Shown here one piece after another: positions 1,637 to 61,962 of a stretch of DNA of 64,000 nt; positions within the stretch are counted from its first letter, which is position 1; every line of letters begins with the position of its first letter. The DNA comes from Shigella phage vB_SboS_Gloob. Location of the stretch: the sequence record OL615011; one strand, written 5' to 3'. The notes under the pieces were generated by a model. That model worked only from the letters and a program-made list of their open reading frames with translations. It was not told the origin of the DNA and did not search any database. A program made the position numbers and the translations under genes.

Positions 1637-2250
1637 TATCTTGTCCTCTTCAGTTTCTCTATCGTGCGCTTGTTCATGGCGATCACCCGAGGATCTACCT
1701 CGGAGATGGTCCGGCCTTTGAAGGACACACATTTCTGAAGATATTTAGCTTTCTTCACGACGTCAGCGGCATAAGCGTTCGATGCGGGATTACGGGCGAA
1801 GCCAGCATTGTAAGAGGAGAGGGATTTGCGTACATTCTGCTTGTGATAGGTCAGCCAGAACTGCATCTCATCGAGGGCGGCTTGCGCGGCATATTCTTGG
1901 TCGGTCAGCAACTTTATGGCGACATTGGCATAGCACTTGCGATTCTTACAACCTTCGCGATCACCAACTGTCTTCACCTTGTTCTGAAAGGCTCCCATGT
2001 TGGCCGCCTTGAGACCGTAGCGCATTGACACTACATCTTCACCAGCACGGCTCTCTCGCCAAGATATGGCAGCCAGGGTGTAACCAAGATCTTGTGTCTT
2101 GCCTATGTGATAGGCAGTTGCCAGCGTATTAAGTTGTTGCTCAGAGAAATCATAAACACATTGACTTGTATTTTGGGAAGCGTGCACATTCCCGCTGGCA
2201 ATGGTAAAGGTCACGGACAAGGCCATGGCCTTCAACGTTGTCATCGTCAT
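1636..2250 (-). CDS. secreted protein with lytic-transglycosylase-like (SLT-like) ES...GL motif
   Basis: N-terminal signal-peptide-like segment (MALSVTFTIASGNVHA); ISWRESR...YGL motif; late-promoter-like motif upstream. Confidence 0.35.
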   Translation of the reverse strand: MTMTTLKAMALSVTFTIASGNVHASQNTSQCVYDFSEQQLNTLATAYHIGKTQDLGYTLAAISWRESRAGEDVVSMRYGLKAANMGAFQNKVKTVGDREGCKNRKCYANVAIKLLTDQEYAAQAALDEMQFWLTYHKQNVRKSLSSYNAGFARNPASNAYAADVVKKAKYLQKCVSFKGRTISEVDPRVIAMNKRTIEKLKRTR

Positions 2251-2328: not shown

Positions 2329-2339
2329 GGTATTTAGTG
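2329..2339 (-). promoter_or_regulatory. late-promoter-like motif CACTAAATACC upstream of the SLT-like gene
   Basis: Lies within a short palindrome in the 2251..2349 intergenic region. Confidence 0.4.
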
Positions 2340-7968: not shown

Positions 7969-7976
7969 TATAAATA
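7969..7976 (+). promoter_or_regulatory. T4-type late promoter core TATAAATA
   Basis: TATAAATA about 36 nt upstream of the plus-strand ATG at 8012, in a divergent intergenic region. Confidence 0.45.
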
Positions 7977-14515: not shown

Positions 14516-14539
14516 CTCGGGATATGGATTATCCCTTAG

Positions 14540-14650
14540 TTAGGCGTGAAATGTCTTACACAGTACGGCTCCGAGATATTCACACAACAAAACGAGCAAG
14601 ACACCCAATGAACATCCAATAAGCCAACCCCAAAATTCAATGTCCACCAT
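14540..14650 (-). CDS. small hydrophobic membrane peptide (36 aa), not in ORF track
   Basis: Manual translation MVDIEFWGWLIGCSLGVLLVLLCEYLGAVLCKTFHA; ATG overlaps the stop of the upstream gene (TGATG). Confidence 0.4.
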   Translation of the reverse strand: MVDIEFWGWLIGCSLGVLLVLLCEYLGAVLCKTFHA

Positions 14651-24263: not shown

Positions 24264-24378
24264 GATGTAGTCTTCCTGTTTCAGTTCAAATGTGCGCCCC
24301 GTTTGCCAGAGCGCTTCGTTTAAGTGAGGTCAATAATACGTTGAAAAAGGTTATTGAAGAATGAAGTAAAGGGAATCT

Positions 24379-27048: not shown

Positions 27049-27471
27049 CTACTTAGCCTTGCGCGGTTTCGCTTTGGCGTTCAGCTCAGTACGTCCCATC
27101 TTCTCGCGTATCTCGGCCAGGACTTCCTTCGGCAAGAAACGGACGTACTCGGATGCCTTCTCCATGCTGATGTAGAAGTACTCGGAGAGTAACTTCACGT
27201 CAGGATCAATCGGACCTTTCTTAGACCATTTGTCGTAGCGTTTCCGCGCCGGAATGGTGTGAAAGGCATATGACCATTGCATCCATGGAGTGACAGCATG
27301 CAGCTTGTTCATCTGCTGTGCAGTCACCAGAGTGTCTTTGCTCTGAGCTAAACCACGCCGCGTCATAAACGGGTCGAATCCTTTCAACACTTCTGGGTCA
27401 TCAGACTGCAGAAGGTTTTCTTTGCTGCTGTTCAGAGCAGCCAGGTAATCGAACAATCCAGGGGCGGCCAT
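27049..27471 (-). CDS. 62: clamp loader small subunit (T4 gp62-like)
   Basis: TIPARKRYDKWSK matches T4 gp62 AVPRGKRYGKWAK; positioned between gp44 and regA as in T4. Confidence 0.7.
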   Translation of the reverse strand: MAAPGLFDYLAALNSSKENLLQSDDPEVLKGFDPFMTRRGLAQSKDTLVTAQQMNKLHAVTPWMQWSYAFHTIPARKRYDKWSKKGPIDPDVKLLSEYFYISMEKASEYVRFLPKEVLAEIREKMGRTELNAKAKPRKAK

Positions 27472-28515: not shown

Positions 28516-28544
28516 ACACATTATAACATCAGGCTGGAGATTGA

Positions 28545-29213
28545 TTACTCAATCTGTGCGCCGACGAAGTAATTGATCGTCGCGTCGGATGATTGGAAGT
28601 TCACCATCTGCAGCTCAGCGCAGGCACGCAGAGTGTAGTTGCCTTCGATCATCTTCAGGTTAGCAACGTCCAGTGGCATGACGAAGTCCGGCAGCGCGGT
28701 TTCACCCAGCTCAACGGTGTAGTTGTTGGAGTTGTCCAGGGTAGTGGTGGTTGCAACCAGGCGAGTTTTGCCACCCTGAGCAACCAGGCGCACAGTCTTG
28801 TGACCGAGGGTAGAACAGGCGCGGGTCAGTTCTTTCATCTTCTCTGGAGTGATGATCGCTTCAAAGTCGACAGACGGCAGTTCAATGGTGTCAGCCGGAA
28901 CAACAGTGAGTTCTTTAGCAGAACGCCAGAATTGCAGCTGAGAGCTTTCGCCTTTCAACAGGATGTAGTCCTGATGGAATTCGGCTTTACCGCCTTTGAA
29001 GGAAGGCAGGCGCTGGATGGCCAGAAGTTTGGTCAGGTCCAGGATAGGGAACTCAAACGGGAAGTCTTCTTCGATCTGAGCCACGGCGATAACAGTAGAC
29101 GAATCGTTAATGCTGCGCAGCATCTTACCCGGTGTCAGAACGATAGATGGGTTGATGGTCTCAAAGTTGGCCAGCAACTGGAGTGTACGTTCGGAGAGAG
29201 TGATCTCTTGCAT
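28545..29213 (-). CDS. 45: sliding clamp (T4 gp45-like)
   Basis: Size (222 aa) and position immediately upstream of gp44/gp62/regA as in T4; N-terminus resembles T4 gp45. Confidence 0.7.
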   Translation of the reverse strand: MQEITLSERTLQLLANFETINPSIVLTPGKMLRSINDSSTVIAVAQIEEDFPFEFPILDLTKLLAIQRLPSFKGGKAEFHQDYILLKGESSQLQFWRSAKELTVVPADTIELPSVDFEAIITPEKMKELTRACSTLGHKTVRLVAQGGKTRLVATTTTLDNSNNYTVELGETALPDFVMPLDVANLKMIEGNYTLRACAELQMVNFQSSDATINYFVGAQIE

Positions 29214-29403
29214 TTATGTATCCTCAAAATATAGTGGGGTTCAAGTCATGTTTGACGCAATCTAGTATCGCTGTGTTGTGCTTATAGAACAAGTGGCAAA
29301 TTGCGCTACGCGTTATTAATAAATGCCTTCGGCATTTATGGACTTTATTAAAGATAATAACCTTTATTAATCCTATTCGCTTCGCTCATAAAACAAATAC
29401 TCG

Positions 29404-29433
29404 TTGTTCGTTAACACTCACAACTCGTATAAT
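29404..29433 (+). promoter_or_regulatory. sigma70-like promoter (TTGTTC, 18 nt spacer, TATAAT) for the plus-strand gene at 29554
   Basis: Hexamers read directly in the 340-bp AT-rich divergent intergenic region. Confidence 0.4.
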
Positions 29434-29553
29434 ACCACGCCATTTGTTCAACAGGAAAGCAATTTTTATTCAACAGCAAAATTAATTTATTTGGTCTAAA
29501 CATGCACGCGAAATAATATGTATGTCATGTTAACCAACACACGAGAGTAATAT

Positions 29554-29931
29554 ATGAAACAGTTCGTAGGATTATATGCGGTCGGATGCAGTAAGCCAGA
29601 CGCCATCCTCACCGCAGGGCAATTTGTCACAGGCACCCCAGTTTATCTGGCGCAGCTGGCGTCAGACAAGAACTTACCATCGGAGCCGCGATTTGTCCCT
29701 CTGGGTTTGATGGCAGGCCTGAAAGTTGGTCTGTATGTCGGTGTGGTGACGTTTGAAAACGGCGTCGAAGCGAAGGTTCTGCCATTTAAATTGGGCAGCG
29801 AACAAATGCTGAAGGACACTATCAGTGAACACCTGAACGCACAATGTCTGGTTTCTCTGGACAAATTGTTCGGCACAGTATCTGATGAAGGCGAGGCCAC
29901 CCCCGCCTATGTGAATCAAGATCAGTCGTGA
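29554..29931 (+). CDS. hypothetical protein
   Basis: 125-aa plus-strand ORF starting MKQFVGLYAV. Confidence 0.5.
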   Translation: MKQFVGLYAVGCSKPDAILTAGQFVTGTPVYLAQLASDKNLPSEPRFVPLGLMAGLKVGLYVGVVTFENGVEAKVLPFKLGSEQMLKDTISEHLNAQCLVSLDKLFGTVSDEGEATPAYVNQDQS

Positions 29932-31430
29932 TTACCCAGCGCCACCTTCATGAACTCCACAGGGTGGCGCTCTGTCAGGTAGAACTTGTAACGCTCATGA
30001 GAGTGCCTGATAGCGTGGTTCGTGCTGGCGTTGTACGACACATCATCCACTAAGTCCCATATCCACGCGACGTCCTTGGAGGAGTGCTGACGCATCAGAC
30101 GACCCAATGTCTGTATGACGCGGATATATGACTTGCTCGGGTGCGCCAGTACAAGGTGGTGTAGCTTCTTGATTGACACACCCTGTTGCATTGTCCCGTA
30201 TGAAGCCAACAACGTGATATCCTCTCCATCCTCCATCGCTTTCTGTATGCGGCGGCGGTCTTCGATCTTCACTTCCCCGTTGATGACAAACACGTTGGGC
30301 TTGACTGCGCTCAGCATATCGTACACAACCATCATGTGGGCGTCAATACGCTCGAACATGATGGCCACGTTCCCTTTCAGATTCAGTGCCATCTTGGCGA
30401 TCAGTTCGTTGCGGGACTGGTGTGTAATAAGGTATTCTATTTCCTTGGCATAATCCCCGTCCAGACCAACAGCATCCGCCGGAGTGTGCTTCAGCTGAAT
30501 CATCTTCACTTTGATGTCAGTGGCGTACCCGAGATTGATAAGGTCGCGAGCTGTGATGATCTTATGGTACGCCCCGAAGTGAGCCACCACCTGAAGCCCG
30601 GCAACTTTGGTGTTCGACAGCGTACCTGTAACCCCCAGGCGCTGGTCGGCGTAGATGCAGTTGTTGAGGATGTAGGACAGTTTCTCAGACTTGGAGGTAT
30701 GCACTTCATCCACCACGATGTCACCGAACTGGTGGAACCATTCTTTCGGCTGGTCTTGAATGCCCTGCCATGTACTGATGACGATTGGTTTGCTGATTTC
30801 CTTTGTCGCGCCCTCAAAGATCAACTGAGTGTTGACAACGGGCTTCCAATCACTGCCGTGTGCGTACTCTTCAAAGTTGTCGTACAGCTGAGTGACCAGG
30901 TGAATCGACGGCACCACGATAAGCGTCTTCAGAGGACTTTCGAGAGCTTCTCTGCGCTGCCTGTAGTACCGCGCCATGACATACAGAATAAAGGACTTAC
31001 CAGCACTTGTAGCCAGTTCACAGACGCATCTGGTTTGACGCATAGCCTTGGCGATGGTGTCGTACTGATAGTCACGGGTCTCAGCATCGATGTATTCGTG
31101 ATTTTCGGTGCGGATCTTTGGATGGAGACTGTCGATGAAGTCATGGATTTCTTGATCTGGGATGTCCTGAATGTACTTCAGAGCCGGATCCAGTTCAATG
31201 GTGTATTTGTTGTTCTTGCAGAACTTGAACACCTCAAACAGTAGGCCGATATCAATCAGGCCGGATGACTTGGTGAATAAGCGAACAACCCCGTCCCATT
31301 TAGAGAAGGGGTTGGGAACGAAGTTCGGGTCTTCGAATTTGAAGTAGTCATTCAGCTCTTCCCTGATAGAAAGATCTGCGATGCAACGCATGCGGACTTC
31401 GTTAACCTTAACAATCTGAATGTCTGCCAT
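29922..31430 (-). CDS. uvsW: UvsW-like SF2 DNA helicase
   Basis: Collinear with T4 UvsW (ATSAGKS, DEVH, WQGIQDQPKEWFHQFG, KKLHHLVLAHPSKSYIRVIQTLGRLMR); ORF track 29922..31523, start moved to MADIQIV. Confidence 0.9.
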   Translation of the reverse strand: MADIQIVKVNEVRMRCIADLSIREELNDYFKFEDPNFVPNPFSKWDGVVRLFTKSSGLIDIGLLFEVFKFCKNNKYTIELDPALKYIQDIPDQEIHDFIDSLHPKIRTENHEYIDAETRDYQYDTIAKAMRQTRCVCELATSAGKSFILYVMARYYRQRREALESPLKTLIVVPSIHLVTQLYDNFEEYAHGSDWKPVVNTQLIFEGATKEISKPIVISTWQGIQDQPKEWFHQFGDIVVDEVHTSKSEKLSYILNNCIYADQRLGVTGTLSNTKVAGLQVVAHFGAYHKIITARDLINLGYATDIKVKMIQLKHTPADAVGLDGDYAKEIEYLITHQSRNELIAKMALNLKGNVAIMFERIDAHMMVVYDMLSAVKPNVFVINGEVKIEDRRRIQKAMEDGEDITLLASYGTMQQGVSIKKLHHLVLAHPSKSYIRVIQTLGRLMRQHSSKDVAWIWDLVDDVSYNASTNHAIRHSHERYKFYLTERHPVEFMKVALGNHD

Positions 31431-31451
31431 ACAAAATCTCCCAAGATATAT

Positions 31452-31462
31452 GGGGTATTTAG
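31452..31462 (-). promoter_or_regulatory. late-promoter-like motif CTAAATACCCC upstream of uvsW
   Basis: Minus-strand CTAAATACCCC about 22 nt upstream of the uvsW ATG, followed by GGGAGA. Confidence 0.5.
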
Positions 31463-32232
31463 CGATCCGGCCAGACTCCGTTCTGTTCTTTATCCATGCG
31501 ATGGTACAGACGAACACGCTCAAACATCTTTGTCAGGATGTCATCGCGGTTGAACTCTATGATGGTTGGCGTCAACGATGACTCGTTGGCAATCACATTG
31601 ATGAGGCGGGTGATCTTGACACCGAACATCTGCTGGAACATAACAGAGTACAAGCACAGCTGGATACTGTAGTCCTCGATCATTCCCCGCGTCTTCATGG
31701 TGTTCGATGTCTTGAAGTCGATGATAGCAGGCTTACCCTCATAAACCCCGATAAGGTCCACTCGACCTGCGAGACCAAGCACCTCGCTATATAACGGGAT
31801 CTCCTGAGCATAGATCTTTGTCATCTTGTTCAGATAGGGGAACAGCTGCTTGAACATGAACATGTATTCGCCAGCCGCTTCCAACACTTCTTTCATTGGG
31901 CGGTTCTTCAAATACAGTTCACATGCAAGGTGCAGCTTCTCCCCTCGGTCAGCGCAACGCATGGTCTCAAGGTCGGCGGCCTCTGCACCCAGCTTCTCCC
32001 TCCAAGCCTCAAGCCATTCATGATCACCAGTACGCCCCAGCATCGTCGTTACAGACGTCAGCTTGACACCAGTTGGTGACACATAATGACGACCGTTCTC
32101 CGTCGTCACACACTCCAGTTCCTTATGAGGAAGTTCGTACTGCTGGAATGTGTAATGACGATTTTCGAAGTCGTTCAGCTTGCGCAGGGCTTGGAGAGAT
32201 GCCATCAGGAACCATCCATATATTTTCGCCAA
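31459..32232 (-). CDS. putative PD-(D/E)xK-type nuclease
   Basis: GRVDLIG ... EGKPAIIDFKTS resembles the D...E-x-K nuclease core. Confidence 0.4.
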   Translation of the reverse strand: MAKIYGWFLMASLQALRKLNDFENRHYTFQQYELPHKELECVTTENGRHYVSPTGVKLTSVTTMLGRTGDHEWLEAWREKLGAEAADLETMRCADRGEKLHLACELYLKNRPMKEVLEAAGEYMFMFKQLFPYLNKMTKIYAQEIPLYSEVLGLAGRVDLIGVYEGKPAIIDFKTSNTMKTRGMIEDYSIQLCLYSVMFQQMFGVKITRLINVIANESSLTPTIIEFNRDDILTKMFERVRLYHRMDKEQNGVWPDR

Positions 32233-32657
32233 TCAATGGCATTCTTCACTTCGTATCCCAGCTTGTTCAGGCGATCCAAACAAGTCTCGATGAACTTGAC
32301 TTTTGCTTTCTGCTCTTGCAACAGAACAGACAGCTCTACATAGTCATCGTCGGCTTTGACCCATGTATCCAGGTCAGACTTCAGGGGGCGAACCTTCAGG
32401 GGGCGCTCTGCGTAGATGTTCGGGGGTAACTCCCCTGCATAGTAGCGGCGCAGATAGAGATCGATCTGGCGGAAGCGCCCGTTGAGGAATTCAAGATAAC
32501 GCCCCTCACGCAGATAATGTCGTTGTACGGCCATCCAAGAGCGCCCGATTTTCAGTGAGATCTGGTCAAGGTTCATGTCTTCTGGGTCCACTGTAATCAG
32601 CGGCTCCAGTTCGTTCATGATGTCCTCGGTTGCCATTGTCTGTAGTTGTTCTTTCAT
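32205..32657 (-). CDS. uvsY: UvsY-like recombination mediator
   Basis: Similar size and motif pattern to T4 UvsY (RRYYAGE ... KNAIDWRKYMDG). Confidence 0.5.
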   Translation of the reverse strand: MKEQLQTMATEDIMNELEPLITVDPEDMNLDQISLKIGRSWMAVQRHYLREGRYLEFLNGRFRQIDLYLRRYYAGELPPNIYAERPLKVRPLKSDLDTWVKADDDYVELSVLLQEQKAKVKFIETCLDRLNKLGYEVKNAIDWRKYMDGS

Positions 32658-32699
32658 AAAATATCCCAGCTTGTCAATGTCATAGAATTATACCGTATT

Positions 32700-33200
32700 T
32701 CATGGATTAGAATCAATCACCTTCCCACCAGATAGTGGGACCAGCTGCTGGAACTTGAACGTCACTGTCGTCACCAGCTGAGGTACAGCCGCATCCACAT
32801 CCACCAGTACGTTGTCCAGAGCAGTCGGACGGGCTTCCTCCAGCACGAGAGTGAGGCCAATCGGTCGGTTGAGGTTATCCAGTAATTCAATGGTAATGTC
32901 CTTGGAGACAGCCAAATCCTTGCCGACGTTGCTGGTGATCCATTGGTGGATCTGTAACCACGATTTCCAGTCCTCGTCTATAACGAAAGTAAATACGACG
33001 GGATCATAGGTTAAACGTTCTGAAGGGATAGAAACCAGTACGTCGCCAGGAGACGGACCATCGATGCCTTCGGAGTACACTCCTGGTATACTGAAGTCGT
33101 GGATGTTACGGGTTAGGAGTACAAGGTCTCCGATAGTCAGACGCCACTTATCGGACGCCGCGAAATTAGGGTTTTCGTTCTTGAATTGTACGTCGGACAT
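32700..33200 (-). CDS. hypothetical protein
   Basis: 166-aa ORF. Confidence 0.45.
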   Translation of the reverse strand: MSDVQFKNENPNFAASDKWRLTIGDLVLLTRNIHDFSIPGVYSEGIDGPSPGDVLVSIPSERLTYDPVVFTFVIDEDWKSWLQIHQWITSNVGKDLAVSKDITIELLDNLNRPIGLTLVLEEARPTALDNVLVDVDAAVPQLVTTVTFKFQQLVPLSGGKVIDSNP

Positions 33201-33238
33201 AATAGCACCTTTTGCTGTGGAGATATTTTGTGACCCTG

Positions 33239-33883
33239 ATGCGCGGGATCAGTAGATTGTTGTTGTTGGCATGCGCGATGCTCTTGCTTACGAGCTGTCG
33301 CATCTTTGTCACGCCAATAATTTCTGTTTCCGAACTCTGGAACCCAGAAGTACGCACCGTACCTGTGACGTTGTCGGCCAGTGTTCCTACTTGTAACAAG
33401 GGTATGCTGGACATCATCGTGCAAGAGTTCCAGACCTTCCAGAAGCTCGTGCCTTTGGGTTGCTTCGAGGAGAACACGAGCACCCTCAAGCCATACTGGA
33501 AGACCACGATTCCCCTCCTGCGTCGTGGCGATGAAGGGAAGATTCCATACCTATCAGCAAGTATTTATTACTCTCAGAACAACAGCATCATCATCACTTT
33601 TAATCCATCATTCTACGCCAAGCTGAAGCAACACATGGTTGGGCGACTGAGTGAAACGTCGGATATAATCGTGACGTTCAAAATCATGAATGACTCAGAC
33701 AAGCCAGTACGAATCGCAACTCAGGGTGTGTTCGTCAACAACGACGCAGTTGGGAATGAGATGAATATCTTTGAAGTTAACCCAGGGGGAACCATCTGGA
33801 TTAGACTGAGTAATGTGGGTGTGAACTCCCTACTGTTGGATGGCATCGAACCAGTGGGAGTTCTTCCGGCGCGGGAGCGCTGA
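33239..33883 (+). CDS. putative outer-membrane lipoprotein (plus-strand)
   Basis: MRGISRLLLLACAMLLLTSC signal peptide with lipobox; ORF track 33212..33883 begins at an upstream TTG. Confidence 0.5.
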   Translation: MRGISRLLLLACAMLLLTSCRIFVTPIISVSELWNPEVRTVPVTLSASVPTCNKGMLDIIVQEFQTFQKLVPLGCFEENTSTLKPYWKTTIPLLRRGDEGKIPYLSASIYYSQNNSIIITFNPSFYAKLKQHMVGRLSETSDIIVTFKIMNDSDKPVRIATQGVFVNNDAVGNEMNIFEVNPGGTIWIRLSNVGVNSLLLDGIEPVGVLPARER

Positions 33884-33885
33884 GA

Positions 33886-34614
33886 TTACTTCAGGGCGCT
33901 CTTCAGATTATCAGAACCTATGTTGTTGATAACGCCACCAGCGCACAGGTCTTTAGCCCACTCAGACAGTACATTGGCGAACGAGAAGTTCAGACACTTG
34001 CTGACCATGTCTTGGATGTGGGCTAACTCTGAGGCAATACCATTGGCGATATCCTGACCGATTTGCGCCACCTGAGCAATAGCATCGTTGATATATCCGG
34101 TAACTTCGGCGGCCAGCGCCTGGATCTTTGCTAGGCCAGCGCTTACGCCCTGCGCAACTAACTCAGCCAGTTCGGCCATCTTGGCAGTAACAGTGCTGAG
34201 AGCACCCTCCATAGCCCCGATCCACTGGCGCCCAAGAGTCTGTATGACGCCGAAGGCATTGTTGATCAGATCACAGTTGGTCGGCTCGCGCTCGATTGAC
34301 TTCAGGCCAGATTTGTACGACACGGAAGTCCCGATGCGGGAATACGCTTCGTTCACAGTCTGATCACCATAGTTGTTCAGCGTGGTGAGGCTGGTGTCGG
34401 CAGAGGTGAACATCGTGTTCGTTTCATTGAGTTTGGCTGTGGTTAGACCGCCTGCCGTCAGAGCGCCCTGGATTTGCGTATTTCCGGTGTTTGCCAGTGC
34501 AGCTGTAGTCGCCTTGCCGCTGGTGATTAAACCCTGAGACGTGCTGCTGAGGGACGGGAGAGGATTGTTAAATGCGTTACCCTGCTCAAGGGCGTCATAG
34601 ATCTGTGCGTTCAT
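33886..34614 (-). CDS. hypothetical protein, probable late gene
   Basis: Late-promoter-like motif upstream; alternative ATG at 34629. Confidence 0.5.
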   Translation of the reverse strand: MNAQIYDALEQGNAFNNPLPSLSSTSQGLITSGKATTAALANTGNTQIQGALTAGGLTTAKLNETNTMFTSADTSLTTLNNYGDQTVNEAYSRIGTSVSYKSGLKSIEREPTNCDLINNAFGVIQTLGRQWIGAMEGALSTVTAKMAELAELVAQGVSAGLAKIQALAAEVTGYINDAIAQVAQIGQDIANGIASELAHIQDMVSKCLNFSFANVLSEWAKDLCAGGVINNIGSDNLKSALK

Positions 34615-34636
34615 AGAAAATACCCCCATGGATGAT

Positions 34637-34648
34637 GGGGGTATTTAG
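34637..34648 (-). promoter_or_regulatory. late-promoter-like motif CCTAAATACCCCC within a 12-bp inverted repeat
   Basis: Promoter motif is one arm of the palindrome AAATACCCCCAT / ATGGGGGTATTT that also contains the first ATG. Confidence 0.45.
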
Positions 34649-34861
34649 GGGATCATGGCAGTTTGTAAACGAAGTTGGACCAGAACTTGCGAGCGAACTT
34701 CTTGGCATAGACCTTCCAGTCGGCGTATTCGCCCTCCTTCAGGTCATTGTAGGTCTCGAACCCTACTGCTCCCAAGAAGTACGCCGTGAAGATATAGCAG
34801 AACAGATTGACGACAAACATGATGTATCTCCGCTGTGTGAACTCAAATTATTTATGGTATG

Positions 34862-35284
34862 TTATAAAAGGCGCTTGGTCTTCGGCTTGCCCATTAGAGT
34901 GATGTCCACAGGGAGGCCAGTTTTCTTGCAACGGTTGATCATATCCAGAGTGCCAGTAGACGAGCCGTCCCACATCGCAATCGGATACACTTCCAGCCTG
35001 GTCTGCCTGACGAGTTCCAATGCCTTGTCTAACATGTCCTGATTGCGTTTGTTACCCATCCCTTTCCCATACCTTTCATAATAGCTCGGAGGGATTGGCA
35101 TAGGAGTGATATGAACATAATTGATTTCAGCCCAATCACGGCAAATCGTGTCGACACCCGTGGCCTCACCCTCGATCAACGTATAGACTTCATGAGGATC
35201 GAGAAGTTCGTCCAGCTTGGCGAATACCTTATCCCGCTCGGTGATTGAGCGGGAACCTGTAACGAGTACGATATACTTCTTCAT
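34862..35284 (-). CDS. SLOG-type Rossmann-like protein (YpsA/DprA-like, DUF2493-like)
   Basis: VLVTGSRS ... GEATGVDTICRDWA motif pattern; ORF track 34862..35329, start moved to MKKYIV. Confidence 0.4.
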   Translation of the reverse strand: MKKYIVLVTGSRSITERDKVFAKLDELLDPHEVYTLIEGEATGVDTICRDWAEINYVHITPMPIPPSYYERYGKGMGNKRNQDMLDKALELVRQTRLEVYPIAMWDGSSTGTLDMINRCKKTGLPVDITLMGKPKTKRLL

Positions 35285-35289
35285 AGAAC

Positions 35290-35634
35290 TCACAGCGCCC
35301 CAAGATTGCCGATGACATACAGGGAGCACAGAGGAGTGCCTGACGAACGGGGTTCGATTGTCATCCCGCTCAGGCGGATCAGTTCCAGTAAGCCGTCAGT
35401 GGTTTGATACGCGCGTGTCGAACCGTTCGGACGGTATAGCTCCAGCTCGGTTCGCCCTTCCTTTAATGCGTTACGAATGCGAGTGAACACACTGTGGCCG
35501 CCGAACTTCTGCTTCAGAAGGTCCAGCTTGGTGACCAGACGGCGCGATTTGCGCGGCTTACGCTTGTTTGGCTTTTCTAATTTGACGATGTGGGGGATCT
35601 CCACACGGTTGGTCATTTTGGTATCGCATGCCAT
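35290..35634 (-). CDS. hypothetical basic protein
   Basis: 114-aa ORF. Confidence 0.4.
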   Translation of the reverse strand: MACDTKMTNRVEIPHIVKLEKPNKRKPRKSRRLVTKLDLLKQKFGGHSVFTRIRNALKEGRTELELYRPNGSTRAYQTTDGLLELIRLSGMTIEPRSSGTPLCSLYVIGNLGAL

Positions 35635-35703
35635 GGTAAAGTCCTCTATTTGTAGGGGATAGGGTATGCGCTTAACATACCCCGTTCAAAGGTTTAGAAC
35701 AAA

Positions 35704-36012
35704 TCAAGAAAAATTGAACTTGTTGTCAACGAAGGTCAGGCGGGAGCATACTTCTTCAACTGCATCAACCATCATAAAATCTTTGAATGCTTCATGCAAG
35801 GCATTCAGGAAGGAAGCTGGGACTAAACCACAAGCCGGGTTGTCAAACAGAGCTGAAGCAACTACTGCGTTGTAAGTTGAATCAGGAGTAGCAGACTGGC
35901 ACAACATCATGGCTTCAGCGTTCTTTACCGCATGGTATTTAAAGGTGTTAACCACAGTGGTTTTGTTGGATTTTGCCAGTTGAGCTTCGAATTGTTCTTT
36001 GGTGATTGTCAT
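35704..36012 (-). CDS. hypothetical protein
   Basis: ORF track 35704..36033; same upstream cassette as the gene at 519..890. Confidence 0.5.
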   Translation of the reverse strand: MTITKEQFEAQLAKSNKTTVVNTFKYHAVKNAEAMMLCQSATPDSTYNAVVASALFDNPACGLVPASFLNALHEAFKDFMMVDAVEEVCSRLTFVDNKFNFS

Positions 36013-36059
36013 GATATAGTTCCTTCGCTTCAAGTTGGTATTGTGTTGCTTGTCCTTGA

Positions 36060-36087
36060 AGTATACGGGGTTTATTGAAGAAGTAAA
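36060..36087 (-). promoter_or_regulatory. sigma70-like promoter (TTTACT, 16 nt spacer, TATACT), copy 2 of a duplicated cassette
   Basis: Hexamers read on the minus strand; about 70 bp of similarity with the cassette at 893..982. Confidence 0.45.
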
Positions 36088-36112
36088 CCCCGTTTATTGA
36101 ATAAATTTAAAA

Positions 36113-36349
36113 TTATTTGAAGCGATCCGGAAGGGTGTCGTGAACCTCGGCGCTCAGCACCAGGTACTTGCCGTCTTTAGTGGGGAAGCAATAGTCTTTC
36201 TTGATGTGTCGCATGTGTTCAGCCGTGGCCGCCACGCAGTCTTCGGTCACATCAGTCTTCTCACCGACCCACATGCTGGTCTTGGTGTTCAGGGTGCCCT
36301 GGAAGATTGTCCCAGTGAGTGGGCTTGCGCCGATCTTTTTAATTCTCAT
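36113..36349 (-). CDS. hypothetical protein
   Basis: Start at the ATG preceded by GGGAGA; ATGA overlap with the upstream gene. Confidence 0.4.
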   Translation of the reverse strand: MRIKKIGASPLTGTIFQGTLNTKTSMWVGEKTDVTEDCVAATAEHMRHIKKDYCFPTKDGKYLVLSAEVHDTLPDRFK

Positions 36350-36723
36350 AATTTCTCCCAAGTCCAGGTTTGAGCTTTAGCCTTTCCGATGACAGGAATA
36401 TCCCGGTGCATATTCCGGAATGACCCAGTCTGATAGAAACTGATCTTCACCCGTTCATGGTTGACGCTCTGAGCCCACACATGATGGCCGTCTGGGTAAA
36501 ATTCACGTTCGTTACCGCCGTCTTTGGCCACCCGAGTTACGACATAAGTGTCGATCAGATAATCGAATACCGTGTTAGAATCCGGGGTGGCTTCGCCCTG
36601 GCTTGTGGTCCAATCACCAACGCAATTTGAGTAAAGAAGATGATTCGGAACCTCAGTCAGGACAGTCATTCCTTCTTTGATTTCGAACACATCACCAACT
36701 TGAAGCAGGGGTAAATTGCTCAT
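36346..36723 (-). CDS. hypothetical protein
   Basis: 125-aa ORF. Confidence 0.45.
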   Translation of the reverse strand: MSNLPLLQVGDVFEIKEGMTVLTEVPNHLLYSNCVGDWTTSQGEATPDSNTVFDYLIDTYVVTRVAKDGGNEREFYPDGHHVWAQSVNHERVKISFYQTGSFRNMHRDIPVIGKAKAQTWTWEKL

Positions 36724-36731
36724 AACAGACC

Positions 36732-37172
36732 TCAGCTAATGCGGAACAGATGTGGATAACCACCAGGATGGCCCTGACCCGTAACGAACACATCGAACTT
36801 AGATCCTTTGATCAGGCCGGGGAGATTACCAGAGTCCAGCAGTTCGCGGATCTGATCCATCGCCAGCATCCAGTTCTTAGCAGGTTCAGCTTCAGCCTCT
36901 CCACGATTGAGGACGAGTTCACCTTCAGAATAATACTTCCCGCTGTCTTTCATATAGTACAGCTTGATATGGATGTACTGAGGGGACGGGACCAAACGCC
37001 AGCCATCGTCAATCAGATCCTGGCGATCATTATCCAGGGACTGGTAATCGATCTCACCAGACGCCAGACCATAGCTGCGCATGTAGCGGAACTTCTCAAC
37101 ACGGTCTTTTACGTCAGAGATGAAGAACTCCTTCGTGGCAGGACTGATGAAAATGTATTTCTCTTTTGACAT
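36732..37172 (-). CDS. hypothetical protein
   Basis: ORF track 36732..37193; start moved to the ATG preceded by AGGAAGG and CTATATC. Confidence 0.5.
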   Translation of the reverse strand: MSKEKYIFISPATKEFFISDVKDRVEKFRYMRSYGLASGEIDYQSLDNDRQDLIDDGWRLVPSPQYIHIKLYYMKDSGKYYSEGELVLNRGEAEAEPAKNWMLAMDQIRELLDSGNLPGLIKGSKFDVFVTGQGHPGGYPHLFRIS

Positions 37173-37189
37173 GATATAGATCCTTCCTT

Positions 37190-37414
37190 TCAAAGAATGA
37201 TGTGTTCGTCGATATCGGACTGCGTTGCAATCTCCCAGCGGACGACATTTTCGGTTGTGATGAAATCACGGTTCAGGTGAGAGGCTGGCACATACACCAT
37301 CGTGTCGACCATGAAGTAACGCTGCTCGTTGTTCCAGGAGTCAACATAAGCCTCAATAAGGCATACTTCGATCACTTCGCCTTTCGGCTTCTTCACAGTC
37401 TTTTTCAGGTACAT
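37190..37414 (-). CDS. hypothetical small protein
   Basis: Start at the ATG preceded by GAGGG. Confidence 0.4.
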   Translation of the reverse strand: MYLKKTVKKPKGEVIEVCLIEAYVDSWNNEQRYFMVDTMVYVPASHLNRDFITTENVVRWEIATQSDIDEHIIL

Positions 37415-37474
37415 GGCACAGCCCTCGGATAGTAGACGGGGCAATAATACCTCTCGCCCCGTTATTGAAAACTG

Positions 37475-37675
37475 TTATCCTTCTTGTTCTTCCCAACCCC
37501 ATTCATCTTCCCAAGACTGGCGAGGGGTCTTGCCCGCTTCGTAATCATCACGCCAGGCGTCGGCGTCGGCGGCCGAACCACCCTGACTTTTCGCGACTTT
37601 GCACAATACGTCGTGCCACTCACGGAAAGTGGAGTTGGCGACTGTGGTGTTTACAGAATCTTCTTTCAGGCTCAT
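37475..37675 (-). CDS. hypothetical small acidic protein
   Basis: Start at the ATG preceded by GAGGAA. Confidence 0.4.
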   Translation of the reverse strand: MSLKEDSVNTTVANSTFREWHDVLCKVAKSQGGSAADADAWRDDYEAGKTPRQSWEDEWGWEEQEG

Positions 37676-37734
37676 TGTGATTTCCTCGATTAATAGAGAG
37701 GGTATTATTACCCTCATGCAATCTTTGAAACTCT

Positions 37735-38067
37735 TTATCCAGCCAAAGTCATATTCTGGGAACCAACCCCATCTTCACATTCTGGATGACATGAAGTGCC
37801 CAGTTTTTCATGGATTACATCCAGATGGGTAAAGATAGCGTCGATGATATCGTCTTGGTCAGACTGGACGTCAATCACCAAGCCGACCAGACCAGGCGCG
37901 GCCATTTCTTTATCTTCACCTTTCTGAGCGGTTGGGTAATCACCGTCGAGTTGGATACGGATGTTTCTGATATTGGTGAGGAGGTTGCACAAACGCTCTT
38001 TATGAGAACGAGCATTGACCAAGATTTGGGACACGGATTGTGTTGGTGATACGAGGTTACTTGACAT
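37735..38067 (-). CDS. hypothetical protein
   Basis: Start at the ATG preceded by AGGAG. Confidence 0.4.
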   Translation of the reverse strand: MSSNLVSPTQSVSQILVNARSHKERLCNLLTNIRNIRIQLDGDYPTAQKGEDKEMAAPGLVGLVIDVQSDQDDIIDAIFTHLDVIHEKLGTSCHPECEDGVGSQNMTLAG

Positions 38068-38159
38068 GATTTGTACTCCTGTTGTATGGTTGACTGTACA
38101 AGCATACAACAGGCAGGTGTATTGAACAACGCGGGTATTAAATCGACACGATAAAGGAA

Positions 38160-38387
38160 TTAACTCGGAATGTGCCTAGCGATCTTCTTGTTGATGTCGT
38201 CTAGCAGAATATTCATCGTATCTTTGTAGACCTCTACAGCCAATATCGATTTGGAATTCATGAATGAGCTGAAGATACCAGATTTCAAACGCCTCAACTC
38301 CTTTTCCGCTTCTTCAATCTGTCTCATGATGTATTTCTTCGCGCCCTGTAGCTCTATAGCACGGATGTCTATTTCTTTATCGTTCAT
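38160..38387 (-). CDS. hypothetical small coiled-coil protein
   Basis: Start at the ATG preceded by GGAGG. Confidence 0.4.
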   Translation of the reverse strand: MNDKEIDIRAIELQGAKKYIMRQIEEAEKELRRLKSGIFSSFMNSKSILAVEVYKDTMNILLDDINKKIARHIPS

Positions 38388-38440
38388 GATGGCCTCCAAT
38401 TAGTTTGGCACATCATATAGCGAATCCCCATAATGAAAAA

Positions 38441-38456
38441 CCCCGCCGAAGCGGGG
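38441..38456 (-). terminator. rho-independent terminator downstream of the major capsid gene
   Basis: ccccgccgaagcgggg stem flanked by an A-run and a T-run. Confidence 0.6.
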
Positions 38457-38479
38457 TTTTGTAGGACCAGCCTGTTAGA

Positions 38480-39811
38480 TTAGAACAGACCTTTGATCAG
38501 ACCTTTACGGAAGTAAGGGTTGCTGTCCTGAGCGATACCATCGGCAGTCACGTAAACCTGTGGGTCCTGGTTCGCTGGGATCTGTACGAATGGGTTCGCG
38601 CAGATGCCGTAACGAGTTTTGAACGCCATACGTGGGCTGAAGGTGGTTTCACCCTGGGTGCGGTACATTTCCAGCGGCACATACGGCGCGAAGAAGATAC
38701 CAGCATCCAGCGCGGTTGCGCCTTTGTACGCCAGGGTGATGTATTCAGCAACCGCATACGGGTCGATGTATACACGCATACCGTTGGACAGTACACCAGC
38801 GAAGGTCTGGCCAGTTGGGTCGATCGCCAGCTTGGTGTTTTCCTGCAGCGCCGGAGCGTAATCCAGCATGCCGGACATTGCCAGAGCGGATGCTACGTTC
38901 GGAGAACACAGAACACGGTTGCCTTTACCACGACGGGTGTCAACACCGATGCCGTTCGCTTCAACTTCCAGCATGAAAGTCATGTACTTCCATTTTTCCA
39001 GCGCCCAACGACCGGAGATGTCGGTGGAGATGTCTACAACGCCGTTTGCGCCGAATTTTTTGAAGCGTACTGCACTGAAGTTCATGGTACGGATGAACTC
39101 ACGGTTCATTTCCGCCTGAATTTCAGTTACCATCACGTCGGACAGGATGCTGTCAACGTCTTCGCCGTGGATCGCCATCATGTCCTGGCGCAGTTCATGG
39201 CTGTAGTCAGCGTACAGGCCACGAGACTTCGCAGTCACGGTTGCTTTCTGAACGGTGATACCAACACGCGCCCATGGGTTGGTGGTGGTGCCCAGCAGTT
39301 CAGCGTCGGTGGTTGGCATGCCTTTACCGATGGTGGTCACGCCAGCGCCGGAACCTTCGATCTCGGCCTGAGTAAAGCCAGATGGATCGCCAGCCTGTAC
39401 AGTACCGTCACCAGAGTAGCCGGAATCAGCTTCCTGCATGAACAGTTCTTTACGGGACTGTTGGGTGTTGGATGAGTCGCCGACGCCCTGGCGAGCACGC
39501 AGAGCAAAGATCTGACCGTCAGGACCAGACAGCGGCTGTACGCCGAAGAAGTCCATCGCGATGTTGATCGGAGCCAGACGTTTTGCCATGTCGATCAGGA
39601 CTGGCTGCCATTTGCCCACAGAGTTGTTCACAGAACCAGGAGCGTCAGATTCGCCCAGGTTTTTGGCGTTCCACTCAGCCTGGTTTTGCAGCAGGCGGAC
39701 AGCAACGTTTTCGGCAGAAAGCGGCTGGATACTTTCAGATTCTTTCTGAAGAACTGGCAGCCACTGCTCGCGCATTTGTTCGGTAACAAGTTTCTTAGCC
39801 ATGATGGTCAT
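38480..39811 (-). CDS. 23: major capsid protein (T4 gp23-like)
   Basis: Strong C-terminal collinearity with T4 gp23 (FAGVL...RVYIDPYA, YKG...DAGIFFAPYV, KTRYGI.ANPF). Confidence 0.92.
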   Translation of the reverse strand: MTIMAKKLVTEQMREQWLPVLQKESESIQPLSAENVAVRLLQNQAEWNAKNLGESDAPGSVNNSVGKWQPVLIDMAKRLAPINIAMDFFGVQPLSGPDGQIFALRARQGVGDSSNTQQSRKELFMQEADSGYSGDGTVQAGDPSGFTQAEIEGSGAGVTTIGKGMPTTDAELLGTTTNPWARVGITVQKATVTAKSRGLYADYSHELRQDMMAIHGEDVDSILSDVMVTEIQAEMNREFIRTMNFSAVRFKKFGANGVVDISTDISGRWALEKWKYMTFMLEVEANGIGVDTRRGKGNRVLCSPNVASALAMSGMLDYAPALQENTKLAIDPTGQTFAGVLSNGMRVYIDPYAVAEYITLAYKGATALDAGIFFAPYVPLEMYRTQGETTFSPRMAFKTRYGICANPFVQIPANQDPQVYVTADGIAQDSNPYFRKGLIKGLF

Positions 39812-39893
39812 TCCTTACATTGATATTCAGTTAAGTTGAAATTACTTAGTAGTTCAAAATCAAGCCCCCTTTCGAGGGCTGTGGCTGCTAAAA

Positions 39894-40766
39894 TTAGCCG
39901 TTGATGCCGAAGCGACGATTATAGTCGGCCAACTGACGCTTGATAGATTCTTTCAGCTCTTTGTCTGTTTCATCTTCATCGTCTTTGCCATCATCGTCGC
40001 CATCATCGCCTTCTTTCTTAGACTTTTTGCCTTCGTCGACTTTGTCTTTGTCGCCTTTGTTGTCGTCGTCACCGTCTTTGCCGCCGACTTTGTCCTGGAA
40101 GTCGTCATCGTCATCGCCTTCTTTCTTAGCAGACTTACCTTCTACCAGGTTGCGGAAGGTGTGTACGCGGGAAGCGAATTCGCTTTCGGTGGTGAACTGC
40201 ACCGCTTCCAGCAGATTGACAACCGTTGCTTTCTTGGTGTCGACCATGCCTTCACAGATACGGGCGATCACAGAGTCGCGCAGAGTCGCATTCGCGGCTT
40301 CTTTGATTTGACGGTTTTCGCTTTCAGCAGCCGCAGCGCGTTGTTCTGCTTCGGTCAGGCGGGCAGTCAGCGCAGCGATCTGGCCGTTTTCGTCAGTCGC
40401 AAAGTTGATACCAGCTTCTTTCAGAACGCCAGTCAGGCCAGTCAGCAGGTTTTCAGCTGCTTCACGCTTGATCTGAGCATCGATTGCAGGAGCGTTGGTG
40501 TTAGCCCACTCTTCTACAACAGCGTTCAGGAAGCTGTCAACTTTGGTTGCGATCTCCATCAAGTGAGACTCTTTCAGCTGAGCAATCTCAGACTGATGAG
40601 CTTCAACCAGACGCAGGCGCTCGACGTTGGCAGCGTTTTCGGTTTCTTGAATAGCGGTCAGGCGAGCGGCTTCTACTTTAGATTCCAGCAGGCCAGACAC
40701 TTTATCCAGGAAGTCGGGGCTGAGGCCGTTAACGCCCTCAAACAGTTTTTGCAATTCAGGTTTCAT
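39894..40766 (-). CDS. 22: prohead scaffold protein (T4 gp22-like)
   Basis: Coiled-coil protein with acidic C-terminal tail, located between the protease and major capsid genes. Confidence 0.7.
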   Translation of the reverse strand: MKPELQKLFEGVNGLSPDFLDKVSGLLESKVEAARLTAIQETENAANVERLRLVEAHQSEIAQLKESHLMEIATKVDSFLNAVVEEWANTNAPAIDAQIKREAAENLLTGLTGVLKEAGINFATDENGQIAALTARLTEAEQRAAAAESENRQIKEAANATLRDSVIARICEGMVDTKKATVVNLLEAVQFTTESEFASRVHTFRNLVEGKSAKKEGDDDDDFQDKVGGKDGDDDNKGDKDKVDEGKKSKKEGDDGDDDGKDDEDETDKELKESIKRQLADYNRRFGING

Positions 40767-40790
40767 GATTGTTTCCTTCTGAACGATTTT

Positions 40791-40802
40791 CAGTATTTAG
40801 TG
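40791..40802 (-). promoter_or_regulatory. late-promoter-like motif CACTAAATACTG upstream of the scaffold gene
   Basis: Read on the minus strand in the protease-scaffold intergenic region. Confidence 0.45.
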
Positions 40803-40811
40803 AGGCTGAAT

Positions 40812-41480
40812 TCAGCCCAGATGTCTCAATGCGATATCGAGGCGGCGCAGGAAGTCGTCTTCGAACTGAATATTGGTTTTCACCAATGAATCGACCACTT
40901 GCCCTTTGATGTCTTTAGGAACCCAAATCCCCGAAGATTCATCAAGCTGCCATTCAACAGATTCGCTCACAGCCTTTACATAACAAACTTGTCCAGAAGG
41001 ACGGTCGACTGCATCAACAGCAGTGAGCATAAAGCCAGGTTGAACGTCGTCATAACCGTTCACCGACTTGGTCTCACCAAGGCCACGTGTAGACACGGCC
41101 AAGTTGAAGTCTGCTTCAGCCAGAGCACGAATGATCTGGCCTTTTGGTGTATTTAGCACACGCGCTCGACCGATTGCGTTTGTACCCTCCCAACGGAGGC
41201 TCTCGGTCTTCAGCGCAGCTTCAGCAATATCTGGGAAAGGGTAGTCGGGATGTTTGAGTTCACCGATTGCGCGACGATCCTGAACATACTCTTTGTCATA
41301 TGCTTCGACAGCTGGTATGCCCACTTTCTGGAGATCGTAGTTGCGTCCATTACGGTTCACCTGATTACACATCACGAATGGACCTTCGATGAACATAGCC
41401 TTACCCCCGGTGGAGGTCGTGCTTTCACCAATTTGGAGGTCTTTCCCTATCGCCGTGATCTCACGCAACAGTTTCATCAT
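40812..41480 (-). CDS. 21: prohead protease (T4 gp21-like)
   Basis: Collinear with T4 gp21 (NRNGRNY, GELKHPDY, AVSTRGLGE, AVDRPSG). Confidence 0.9.
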   Translation of the reverse strand: MMKLLREITAIGKDLQIGESTTSTGGKAMFIEGPFVMCNQVNRNGRNYDLQKVGIPAVEAYDKEYVQDRRAIGELKHPDYPFPDIAEAALKTESLRWEGTNAIGRARVLNTPKGQIIRALAEADFNLAVSTRGLGETKSVNGYDDVQPGFMLTAVDAVDRPSGQVCYVKAVSESVEWQLDESSGIWVPKDIKGQVVDSLVKTNIQFEDDFLRRLDIALRHLG

Positions 41481-41487
41481 TCGCTCC

Positions 41488-41793: not shown

Positions 41794-41803
41794 GATGCTC
41801 TCC

Positions 41804-41974: not shown

Positions 41975-42008
41975 CATATCCTCTAAATGTTTTCTATACT
42001 TAGTCGAA

Positions 42009-43700: not shown

Positions 43701-43730
43701 GATTAAGTCCTCAACATTTTCTTGTAATTA

Positions 43731-43759
43731 GTGCTGGGGGAATAAGATTCCCCCAGCAC
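43731..43759 (-). terminator. hairpin between the tail tube and portal genes
   Basis: gtgctgggggaataagattcccccagcac stem-loop; no clear T-run. Confidence 0.35.
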
Positions 43760-43767
43760 TGAGGACA

Positions 43768-44301: not shown

Positions 44302-44355
44302 TATAGATTCTCCAAAAAGAGTTACACAATTCTAATTAGTGCCTTCAATGAAATT

Positions 44356-44371
44356 GCCCTCCGAAGAGGGC
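44356..44371 (-). terminator. hairpin terminator downstream of the sheath gene
   Basis: gccctccgaagagggc stem-loop; the same sequence recurs at 57146..57163. Confidence 0.5.
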
Positions 44372-44379
44372 ATGTTCCA

Positions 44380-46275: not shown

Positions 46276-46315
46276 AATCTTATTCCTTCTCGGTAGAGTT
46301 TCGCTCAATTTGAAA

Positions 46316-46326
46316 GTTATTTAGTG
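46316..46326 (-). promoter_or_regulatory. late-promoter-like motif CACTAAATAAC upstream of the sheath gene
   Basis: Read on the minus strand between the terminase stop and the sheath start. Confidence 0.45.
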
Positions 46327-46327
46327 A

Positions 46328-50591: not shown

Positions 50592-50603
50592 AGGTATTTA
50601 GTC
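50592..50603 (-). promoter_or_regulatory. late-promoter-like motif GACTAAATACCTT upstream of the gp14-like gene
   Basis: Read on the minus strand about 20 nt upstream of the ATG, followed by GAGGG. Confidence 0.45.
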
Positions 50604-57106: not shown

Positions 57107-57116
57107 ATATTTAGTA
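57107..57116 (-). promoter_or_regulatory. late-promoter-like motif (weaker variant TACTAAATAT) upstream of the giant structural gene
   Basis: Lies between a terminator hairpin and the GGAG-ATG start. Confidence 0.35.
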
Positions 57117-61949: not shown

Positions 61950-61962
61950 GGGGTATTTAGTG
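61950..61962 (-). promoter_or_regulatory. late-promoter-like motif CACTAAATACCCC upstream of tailspike B
   Basis: Motif forms one arm of an inverted repeat (ATACCCCAT / ATGGGGTAT) that includes the first ATG. Confidence 0.5.

Follow-up and report, generated by a model that had tools for sequence, protein, structure and literature searches.

A CTAAATA motif as the predicted late promoter of the structural genes in an Agtrevirus phage

Introduction

What is the function of the 11-nucleotide sequence CTAAATACCCC that lies just upstream of uvsW, on the minus strand at 31452-31462, and of the similar sequences that recur upstream of other genes in the same phage? We analyzed 64,000 nucleotides of Shigella phage vB_SboS_Gloob (OL615011), and we call this whole stretch the window. 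An initial annotation had read the recurring sequences as late promoters of the variant described for ViI-like phages, and had linked them to a gp55-like sigma factor encoded in the same DNA. In T4, uvsW is a late gene.

As judged from the sequence, our finding is a re-identification of a putative late-promoter motif that was already known for the family. The family motif, CTAAATAcCcc, was reportedly first described by Adriaenssens et al. in 2012 (Arch Virol). It is quoted as one of the "two unique regulatory motifs" of the group in the EspM4VN paper (PMC7283392), and the paper on Dickeya phage LIMEstone1 reported 33 late promoters. The LIMEstone1 GenBank record marks a "putative late promoter" at the sites orthologous to those of uvsW, ORF129, ORF130, gp22, gp18, gp14, the giant structural gene, and the tail spikes. 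The initial reading of a ViI-like variant was accurate. The window has three exact 11-mers and two 9-mers of the family motif, and these are conserved at the orthologous sites of other members. This is the same motif as in LIMEstone1 (or "Viunalikevirus"), in the same family, and nothing essential differs. In 2011, Kutter et al. considered that the late promoter of the ViI-like phages was still to be identified (PMC3184105). The motif escaped the authors of the paper on Shigella phage Ag3 (PMC3121705), since they looked for TATAAATA and allowed one mismatch.

Results

Relatives and gene map

Bases 29000-47000 of the window are 98% identical to Ag3 over 96% of their length, and the Agtrevirus isolates MK-13, P46FS4, and SKML-39 match this region as well as Ag3 does. 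By sequence similarity, then, the window is from the Ackermannviridae, Aglimvirinae, genus Agtrevirus, and the initial assignment to the ViI-like phages was right. To build a gene map, we transferred the Ag3 start codons by tblastn and added ORFs where they were absent from Ag3. The gene order agrees with the Ag3 annotation, and the minus strand carries almost all of the genes. The layout runs from an SLT-like gene to gp46, gp47, and gp55, then an early-type block, then gp45/44/62/regA and uvsW/uvsY, and finally the head, tail, packaging, and tail-spike genes. The SLT-like gene is an intact 204-amino-acid ORF (1636-2250) with a weak match to Pfam's SLT family; its counterpart in phage Menlow is annotated as a lytic transglycosylase. 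A search of the window against Rfam matched no family.

We also noticed that 18780-21295 holds two intact genes, as in Menlow: a NAPRTase/NAMPT (554 amino acids) and a PRPP-synthetase-like gene (284 amino acids). Ag3's gp130, annotated as "nicotinamide phosphoribosyl transferase," combines the N-terminus of the PRPP-synthetase-like protein with the C-terminus of NAPRTase/NAMPT. Since gp130 matches parts of both genes, it appears to be a fusion that arose in Ag3 by a deletion of about 0.86 kb. We considered that the window might instead have a NAMPT gene split by an insertion, and rejected this, because both genes are intact here and the deletion is in Ag3.

Enrichment and placement of the motif

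All of the sites in the initial annotation are present on the minus strand, displaced by 0-3 nt at most. CTAAATACC has five matches in the window, all on the minus strand (2329, 31454, 34640, 50593, and 61952); only 0.10 are expected, and 0 of 100 shuffles reached five. The full 11-mer CTAAATACCCC occurs three times (31452-31462, 34638-34648, and 61950-61960, all minus). CTAAATA has 10 copies, again all on the minus strand, with 3.25 expected. The T4-type sequence TATAAATA was described as having a single site on the plus strand, and this is so: it occurs once in the window, at 7969-7976, 35 nt before the ATG at 8012. A single copy is expected by chance, but the site is conserved in other genera.

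The signal is stronger in the regions upstream of genes, which we defined as -90 to -5 relative to the start codons (73 genes for the shuffle test and 74 for the k-mer scan). These regions contain eight copies of CTAAATA, as compared to 0.49 in dinucleotide shuffles of the same regions, and none of 1000 shuffles reached eight. This is the enrichment over shuffled sequence that the initial annotation had proposed to look for. The looser pattern CTAANTA has 14 copies upstream of the 73 genes, versus 1.42 in dinucleotide shuffles. In the same regions, the reverse complement of the motif is found only at the chance level, so the signal is strand-specific and is neither compositional nor symmetric. 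An unbiased k-mer scan, with both strands of the whole window as the background, returned TAAATA, CTAAATA, and ACTAAATA as the top 6-mer, 7-mer, and 8-mer; 8 of the 10 copies of CTAAATA are upstream of genes (p = 8.6e-10).

Across the window, CTAANTA has 17 copies on the minus strand, and 14 of these are just upstream of start codons. Start codons follow the 3' end of the motif by 21-46 nt, except for the SLT-like gene, with a gap of 80 nt. For the tail spike, the gap is 36 nt if the second ATG is taken, as annotated in Ag3; this ATG, at 61917, is the likely start. Most copies of the motif do not overlap stop codons. In the Ag3 genome, the motif's count of 19 is only about twice the expectation from shuffling, so the signal lies in the placement of the motif and not in its abundance.

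Conservation across genera

We compared the window to Limestonevirus LIMEstone1, Kuttervirus S118, Taipeivirus Menlow, and an Ackermannviridae-like Vibrio phage. The motif is kept at orthologous sites. Across 12 orthologous upstream regions from four enterobacterial genera, aligned with MAFFT, the seven columns of the motif are 95% identical between pairs of sequences, versus 63% for the other upstream columns (Mann-Whitney p = 7e-15 for motif versus flanks). Upstream of gp14, gp19, and the giant structural gene, the motif survives across genera between flanks that are essentially unrelated. At gp19, the motif is 100% identical versus 47% for the flanks, and at the giant gene, the motif persists in LIMEstone1 despite completely diverged flanks. 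Copies of the motif are also present in the Vibrio relative.

The first base of the motif does vary. At the gp147 site it is C, T, or A depending on the genus, and some Kuttervirus genomes have the canonical TATAAATA there, so C is a preference and not a requirement. At the site orthologous to 7969, Menlow has ATAAATA, S118 has ATAAGTA, and Vibrio K368 has CTAAATA. At the site upstream of the SLT-like gene, S118 has CTAAATA and Menlow has CTAATTA.

Consensus, variants, and the genes served

Our working consensus is (c)(a)[C>T,A]TAA[A>G,T]TA. Five of the seven positions of the core, xTAAxTA, are invariant, and the first base is mostly C and elsewhere T or A, even between orthologous sites. In the aligned sites, the interval expected to hold a -35 element, 17-25 nt upstream, carries no information. 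Downstream, A is enriched at 6 and 7 nt from the motif (10/16 and 11/16 sites). The sites listed initially are all present (Table 1), but the list did not include CTAAGTA and CTAATTA, the variants that precede the most abundant structural genes. The variants that we added are upstream of the capsid, portal, and tail tube genes and of gp162, regA, gp120, and gp148.

Table 1. Predicted late promoters, other copies of the motif, and late transcription proteins in the window. Distances are to the start codon; z is for the folding of the leader.
Feature	Position	Strand	Motif	Remarks
gp55-type late sigma factor, 242 aa	6699..7427	-		PHROG 234 at E = 3.6e-52
gp45-type sliding clamp, presumed late co-activator	28545..29213	-		100% identical to Ag3 "Gp45 sliding clamp"
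uvsW, predicted late promoter	31452..31462	-	CTAAATACCCC	25 nt before ATG 31430; conserved in LIMEstone1, S118, and Menlow; putative late promoter in LIMEstone1 record
DUF7217 structural gene (Ag3 gp147), predicted late promoter	34638..34648	-	CTAAATACCCC	3' half is the 5' arm of 12-bp hairpin 34618-34646 (z = -3.2)
gp22 scaffold, predicted late promoter	40794..40800	-	caCTAAATAct	27 nt before ATG; annotated in LIMEstone1
gp18 tail sheath, predicted late promoter	46318..46324	-	caCTAAATAac	42 nt before ATG; also in Vibrio phage K368
gp14, predicted late promoter	50593..50601	-	CTAAATACC	hairpin 50576-50597 (z = -3.1)
giant structural gene (~1600 aa), predicted late promoter	57108..57114	-	taCTAAATAtg	34 nt before ATG 57073; terminator-like hairpin upstream
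tail spike, predicted late promoter	61950..61960	-	CTAAATACCCC	hairpin 61924-61956 (z = -5.3)
SLT-like gene, candidate site	2329..2337	-	CTAAATACC	80 nt upstream; in loop of terminator-like hairpin 2318-2345 (-20 kcal/mol, z = -2.1)
plus-strand gene 8012-8776, predicted late promoter	7969..7976	+	TATAAATA	
gp23 major capsid, variant	39843..39849	-	CTAAGTA	40 nt upstream; directly after terminator-like hairpin 39863-39880; identical in 4 genera
gp162, variant	41997..42003	-	CTAAGTA	CTAAATA in S118 and Menlow
gp20 portal, variant	43725..43731	-	CTAATTA	24 nt upstream; directly after hairpin
gp19 tail tube, variant	44333..44339	-	CTAATTA	31 nt upstream; after terminator-like hairpin 44355-44372
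regA, variant	27050..27056	-	CTAAGTA	30 nt upstream; overlaps gp62 end; identical in 4 genera
Ag3 gp120 homologue, variant	14537..14543	-	CTAACTA	30 nt upstream; conserved in S118 and Menlow; CTAAGTA in Vibrio K368
small gene 34656-34820, variant	34849..34855	-	ATAAATA	28 nt upstream; late promoter in LIMEstone1 annotation
within SLT-like gene	1742..1748	-	CTAAATA	106 nt upstream of next gene
within gp21	41150..41156	-	CTAAATA	TTAAACA in Menlow

The genes served are mostly virion genes: gp23, gp22, gp20, gp19, gp18, gp14, the giant structural gene, the tail spike, and the DUF7217 gene, plus uvsW. Some sites precede non-structural genes (regA and the gp120 homologue). The tightly packed blocks gp14-15-16-17 and gp162-68-21 each have one motif at the head; the site at 50593 probably serves all of gp14-gp15-gp16-gp17, and the one at 41997 probably serves gp162-gp68-gp21. 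The site of the SLT-like gene is the least certain of those listed. The 80-nt leader before this gene (window 2251-2345) hardly varies across Agtrevirus, Kuttervirus, and Taipeivirus, and its conservation exceeds that of the adjacent coding sequence; part of it is annotated in Ag3 as a 44-amino-acid ORF with a CTG start.

Two copies of CTAAATA are within genes. At 1742, in the SLT-like gene, three genera have the identical copy, with even the synonymous positions unchanged, although the adjacent codons vary. Going by the sequence, this copy may be an internal late promoter, which is uncertain. We rejected the copy at 41150, in gp21, as functional, because Menlow breaks the motif at a synonymous site; the match there probably reflects chance or the coding sequence.

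In the reassembled Ag3 genome, we found more copies of CTAAATA before gp48, gp6, further tail-spike genes, and others, and TTAAATA or ATAAATA before gp4, gp2, gp54, gp5, and the endolysin gene. The motif is absent from the early genes that we inspected in Ag3 (topoisomerase, gp41, ligase, NrdA, primase, and gp32). The exception among the early-type genes is DNA polymerase, which has TTAAATA upstream. Ag3 also has two divergent pairs of late genes with short intergenic regions and one motif per strand, gp4/gp48 (19013-19062) and gp2/gp54 (41534-41586). The motifs are TTAAATA with CTAAATA in one case and TTAAATA with TATAAATA in the other, so these are predicted to be back-to-back late promoters.

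Five sites have a hairpin immediately upstream of the motif: gp23, gp19, gp20, the giant gene, and the tail spike. Of these five, a scan for terminators called the hairpins of gp23 and gp19 terminator-like. Overall, our scan of the window for consensus sigma-70 promoters and terminators gave results at the chance level. Genes that follow a hairpin would need their own transcription start wherever the hairpin does act as a terminator.

gp55, gp45, and gp33

The claim that the window encodes a gp55-like sigma factor is well supported. The protein matches PHROG 234 (E = 3.6e-52), and a gp55 profile that we built without sequences from T4 or other Straboviridae matches T4 gp55 (7D7C_F, E = 1.4e-18); the similarity takes in the segment resembling sigma region 2 as well as the promoter pocket. 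Pfam, phmmer against PDB, and BLASTP found no direct similarity to T4 gp55; it is detected only by PHROGs and the family profile. The protein aligns with gp55 from T4, a cyanophage, Cr30, Moby, and a Vibrio phage. The sliding clamp's match to Pfam's gp45-slide_C is weak (E = 0.0017, below the cut-off). gp33 is encoded outside the window and is annotated in the 98%-identical genome of Ag3.

In the cryo-EM structure of the T4 late complex, gp55 reads TATAAATA on the non-template strand, and A-12, A-9, and A-8 are flipped into pockets (PMC7892883). The motif in the window aligns to TATAAATA base for base, from -13 to -6, with C replacing A at -12 and with -8 relaxed. The variable positions, -12 (C, T, or A) and -8 (A, G, or T), are two of the three bases that sit in the pockets of T4 gp55, so recognition by gp55 must differ in detail from T4. 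Tolerance of these bases by the window's gp55 would imply a relaxed or different read-out.

Of T4's pocket residues, N13, R57, F86, and T99 are conserved in the window's gp55, while L54 is replaced by M, H95 by F, and Y97 by W. These three changes are common to the enterobacterial Ackermannviridae; Vibrio K368 has Y at Y97. We considered that the pocket residues might explain the C at -12, and rejected this, because K368 has Y and yet uses CTAAATA, and phage PX29 keeps the T4 residues. PX29 is a relative of Aeromonas phage Aeh1, whose late promoters have the sequence CTAAATA and so also carry C at -12 (Nolan et al. 2006, PMC1524935). As in the window, these were found before orthologues of T4 late genes. 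In contrast to the window's phage, Aeh1 belongs to the Straboviridae, and PX29's gp55 keeps the T4-like segment NPHAYIT where the window has NFFSWVT. So the C at -12 probably arose, or persists, independently of those residues.

The 3' end of the window's gp55 gene (6699-6760) has a 50-bp deletion relative to Ag3 and S118. The protein ends in ...FDLDETEGETE and lacks the conserved tail of about 27 amino acids, ending in NNGDC, of the 257-264-amino-acid forms. Because the short allele is 100% identical in SKML-39 and MK-13, and is also found in several other isolates, it reflects natural variation, not an error. The deletion spares the T4-like clamp-binding segment (GILQYMAQ), which lies further upstream.

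Hairpins and the "cc(cc)" tail

The initial annotation had described a preference for CTAAATAcc. The core of this stands, but the "cc" is only partly a property of the promoter, as it is the arm of a hairpin at three of the five CTAAATACC sites. When we folded the leaders, we found hairpins for gp147, gp14, and the tail spike (Table 1) and a weak one for uvsW. The leaders of gp22, gp18, and gp23, which have no C-run, gave no hairpin. In these hairpins, the 5' arm is AAAUACC(CC), from the motif, and the 3' arm is a G-rich Shine-Dalgarno sequence followed by UAU(UU). For gp147, the 3' arm is the Shine-Dalgarno GGGGG. For gp14, ATACCTTC pairs with the Shine-Dalgarno GAGGGTAT, and for the tail spike, ATACCCCAT pairs with ATGGGGTAT. 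The pattern TAAATACC-N3-30-GGTAT has three matches versus 0.04 expected, and the same architecture is found before Ag3's orf213 and its endolysin gene. The folding models suggest that the "cc(cc)" tail serves largely as a hairpin 5' arm whose partner is the Shine-Dalgarno sequence further downstream.

In T4, hairpins mask the ribosome binding sites of e, soc, 49, and I-TevI in early read-through RNA, and the late promoters start transcription inside the stem. By analogy, we tentatively suggest that the "cCcc" tail might be an anti-Shine-Dalgarno arm instead of being recognized by the sigma factor; we consider this the less probable reading of the tail. The hairpin AAATACC(CC)...(GG)GGTATTT would form only in read-through RNA, where it would mask the ribosome binding site or terminate transcription; transcripts from the late promoter would be unable to form it, and translation would be late-only. 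This reading covers the DUF7217 gene, gp14, the tail spikes, Ag3's orf213 and endolysin gene, and, weakly, uvsW. As in the T4 genes, the 3' half of the motif and the C-run are predicted to pair with the Shine-Dalgarno sequence at gp147, gp14, the tail spike, and Ag3's orf213. Unlike in T4, the modeled opening of the Shine-Dalgarno is partial, and the hairpin at gp147 may be a terminator. In our models, a start 6 nt after the motif removes the 5' arm and raises the unpaired probability of the Shine-Dalgarno from 0.00 to 0.2-0.5, while the modeled accessibility of the whole initiation region (-14 to +3) changes little between the read-through and late transcripts. For the SLT-like gene, transcription starting 6 nt past the motif would likewise begin within the 3' arm of the hairpin. 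In Menlow and LIMEstone1, the gp147 hairpin is annotated as an intrinsic terminator, which it also resembles, so it could act in that way instead of as a mask. Its stems are identical in all 18 related loci, with only the loops differing, and covariation therefore cannot decide between masking and termination.

The tail-spike genes of several genera, including at 61917-61960 in the window and in S118, share the cassette CTAAATAccccatattgg...atggggtat at their 5' junction. Besides containing the predicted promoter and hairpin, this cassette could be a recombination joint for the exchange of tail-spike modules.

Early-type motifs

The second motif quoted for the family, TTCAAT-N14-TATAAT, is early-promoter-like. 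With up to two mismatches, it has 20 sites in the window versus 3.8 expected; examples on the minus strand are 11995-12020, 24333-24358, 28520-28545, 37444-37469, and 37704-37729. Intergenic regions on the minus strand of the early-type block hold most of the copies, and several of the -10 boxes are in the loop of a GC-rich hairpin. Many small early-type genes are also preceded by a repeated leader cassette: a hairpin, then "atttgaaa", then "gagactatatcATG". Examples on the minus strand are upstream of the starts at 890, 11962, 15308, 24263, 36012, and 37172. In several ORF calls, an in-frame upstream extension through the cassette encodes MKRRNYIM. It looks like a shared cassette for translation initiation or for early transcripts.

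Discussion

We propose that the motif is very probably the gp55-type late promoter of this phage, as the initial annotation had suggested. Promoters are consistent with the motif's enrichment, strand, position, and conservation, with the absence of any -35 element, and with the hairpins upstream. The motif would be a -10-like element. The host's core RNA polymerase with the phage's gp55 would melt it and read the non-template strand, without needing a -35 element. gp33 and the gp45 clamp, loaded on replicating DNA, would help, by homology with T4. Transcripts would start about 6-7 nt downstream, preferably at A, and these late transcripts would drive the head, tail, packaging, and tail-spike genes as well as uvsW. 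We infer the pairing of the sigma factor with the promoter, the start site, and the late timing from homology to T4. In the literature that we searched, we found no transcription-start mapping, RNA-seq, or in vitro transcription for any of the Ackermannviridae.

Could the sites be promoters that are read by something other than gp55, such as the host's sigma-70 or an unknown middle-mode factor? According to PMC3184105, the family has neither MotA/AsiA nor a described mechanism for controlling early and middle genes; also, the site of the giant gene overlaps a weak TTCTAT-N14-TATACT match. But TAAATA is a poor -10 hexamer for sigma-70, there is no -35 signal, mostly virion genes are served, and the early-type intergenic regions are marked by a separate motif (TTCAAT-N14-TATAAT). 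We consider it improbable that another factor reads these sites. It also seems unlikely that the motif acts in RNA, as a site for processing by an endonuclease or as an element for the stability or translation of polycistronic mRNA. A strand-specific motif in 5' leaders, at variable distances from the start codon, is what would be expected for a cleavage site, and several copies are embedded in RNA hairpins. However, half of the motif lies in the stem at those hairpins, an unusual location for the site of a single-strand-specific RNase. Furthermore, five copies are directly after hairpins, two of them terminator-like, and if these do terminate transcription, there would be little read-through RNA to process. 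Processing in RNA also leaves unexplained the base-for-base match to the late promoters of the T4 family and the presence of the cognate sigma factor.

We give almost no credence to the idea that the motif recurs without any function, as a by-product of AT-rich intergenic sequence, TAA stop codons, or duplicated cassettes. It is true that the upstream exonuclease gene uses the TAA within the uvsW copy as its stop codon, and that the tail-spike copies share a longer identical cassette, CTAAATAccccatattgg. But most copies are not at stop codons, the motif is kept across genera while its flanks diverge, and shuffled sequences had far fewer copies (0.49 versus 8), with no enrichment of the reverse complement.

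The predicted late promoters resemble those of T4 in several respects. Both consist of one -10-like element (7-8 bp) with a TAAATA core, lack a -35 element, and precede virion genes and uvsW; homologues of gp55 and gp45 are present; and promoters lie after terminators or inside hairpins. The A enrichment 6-7 nt after the motif is at the position where T4 late transcripts start. The differences are that T4 has A at -12, where the window has C (or sometimes T or A), and that the window tolerates G or T at -8, including for the major capsid gene. Also, the window's gp55 is distant from T4's, being detected only by profiles, with a C-terminal extension and with H95 and Y97 replaced by F and W.

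Our results leave what is known about T4-like late transcription unchanged. They do provide a coherent predicted map of late transcription for the structural module of Agtrevirus, in which each packed block opens with the motif, often after a hairpin. They also correct the original annotation of Ag3, which was limited to TATAAATA, and should be useful for annotating and engineering these phages, which are candidates for biocontrol or therapy. Finally, the natural variation at -12 and -8 and the layout of promoters within hairpins offer testable ideas about the specificity of gp55 and about the timing of translation.
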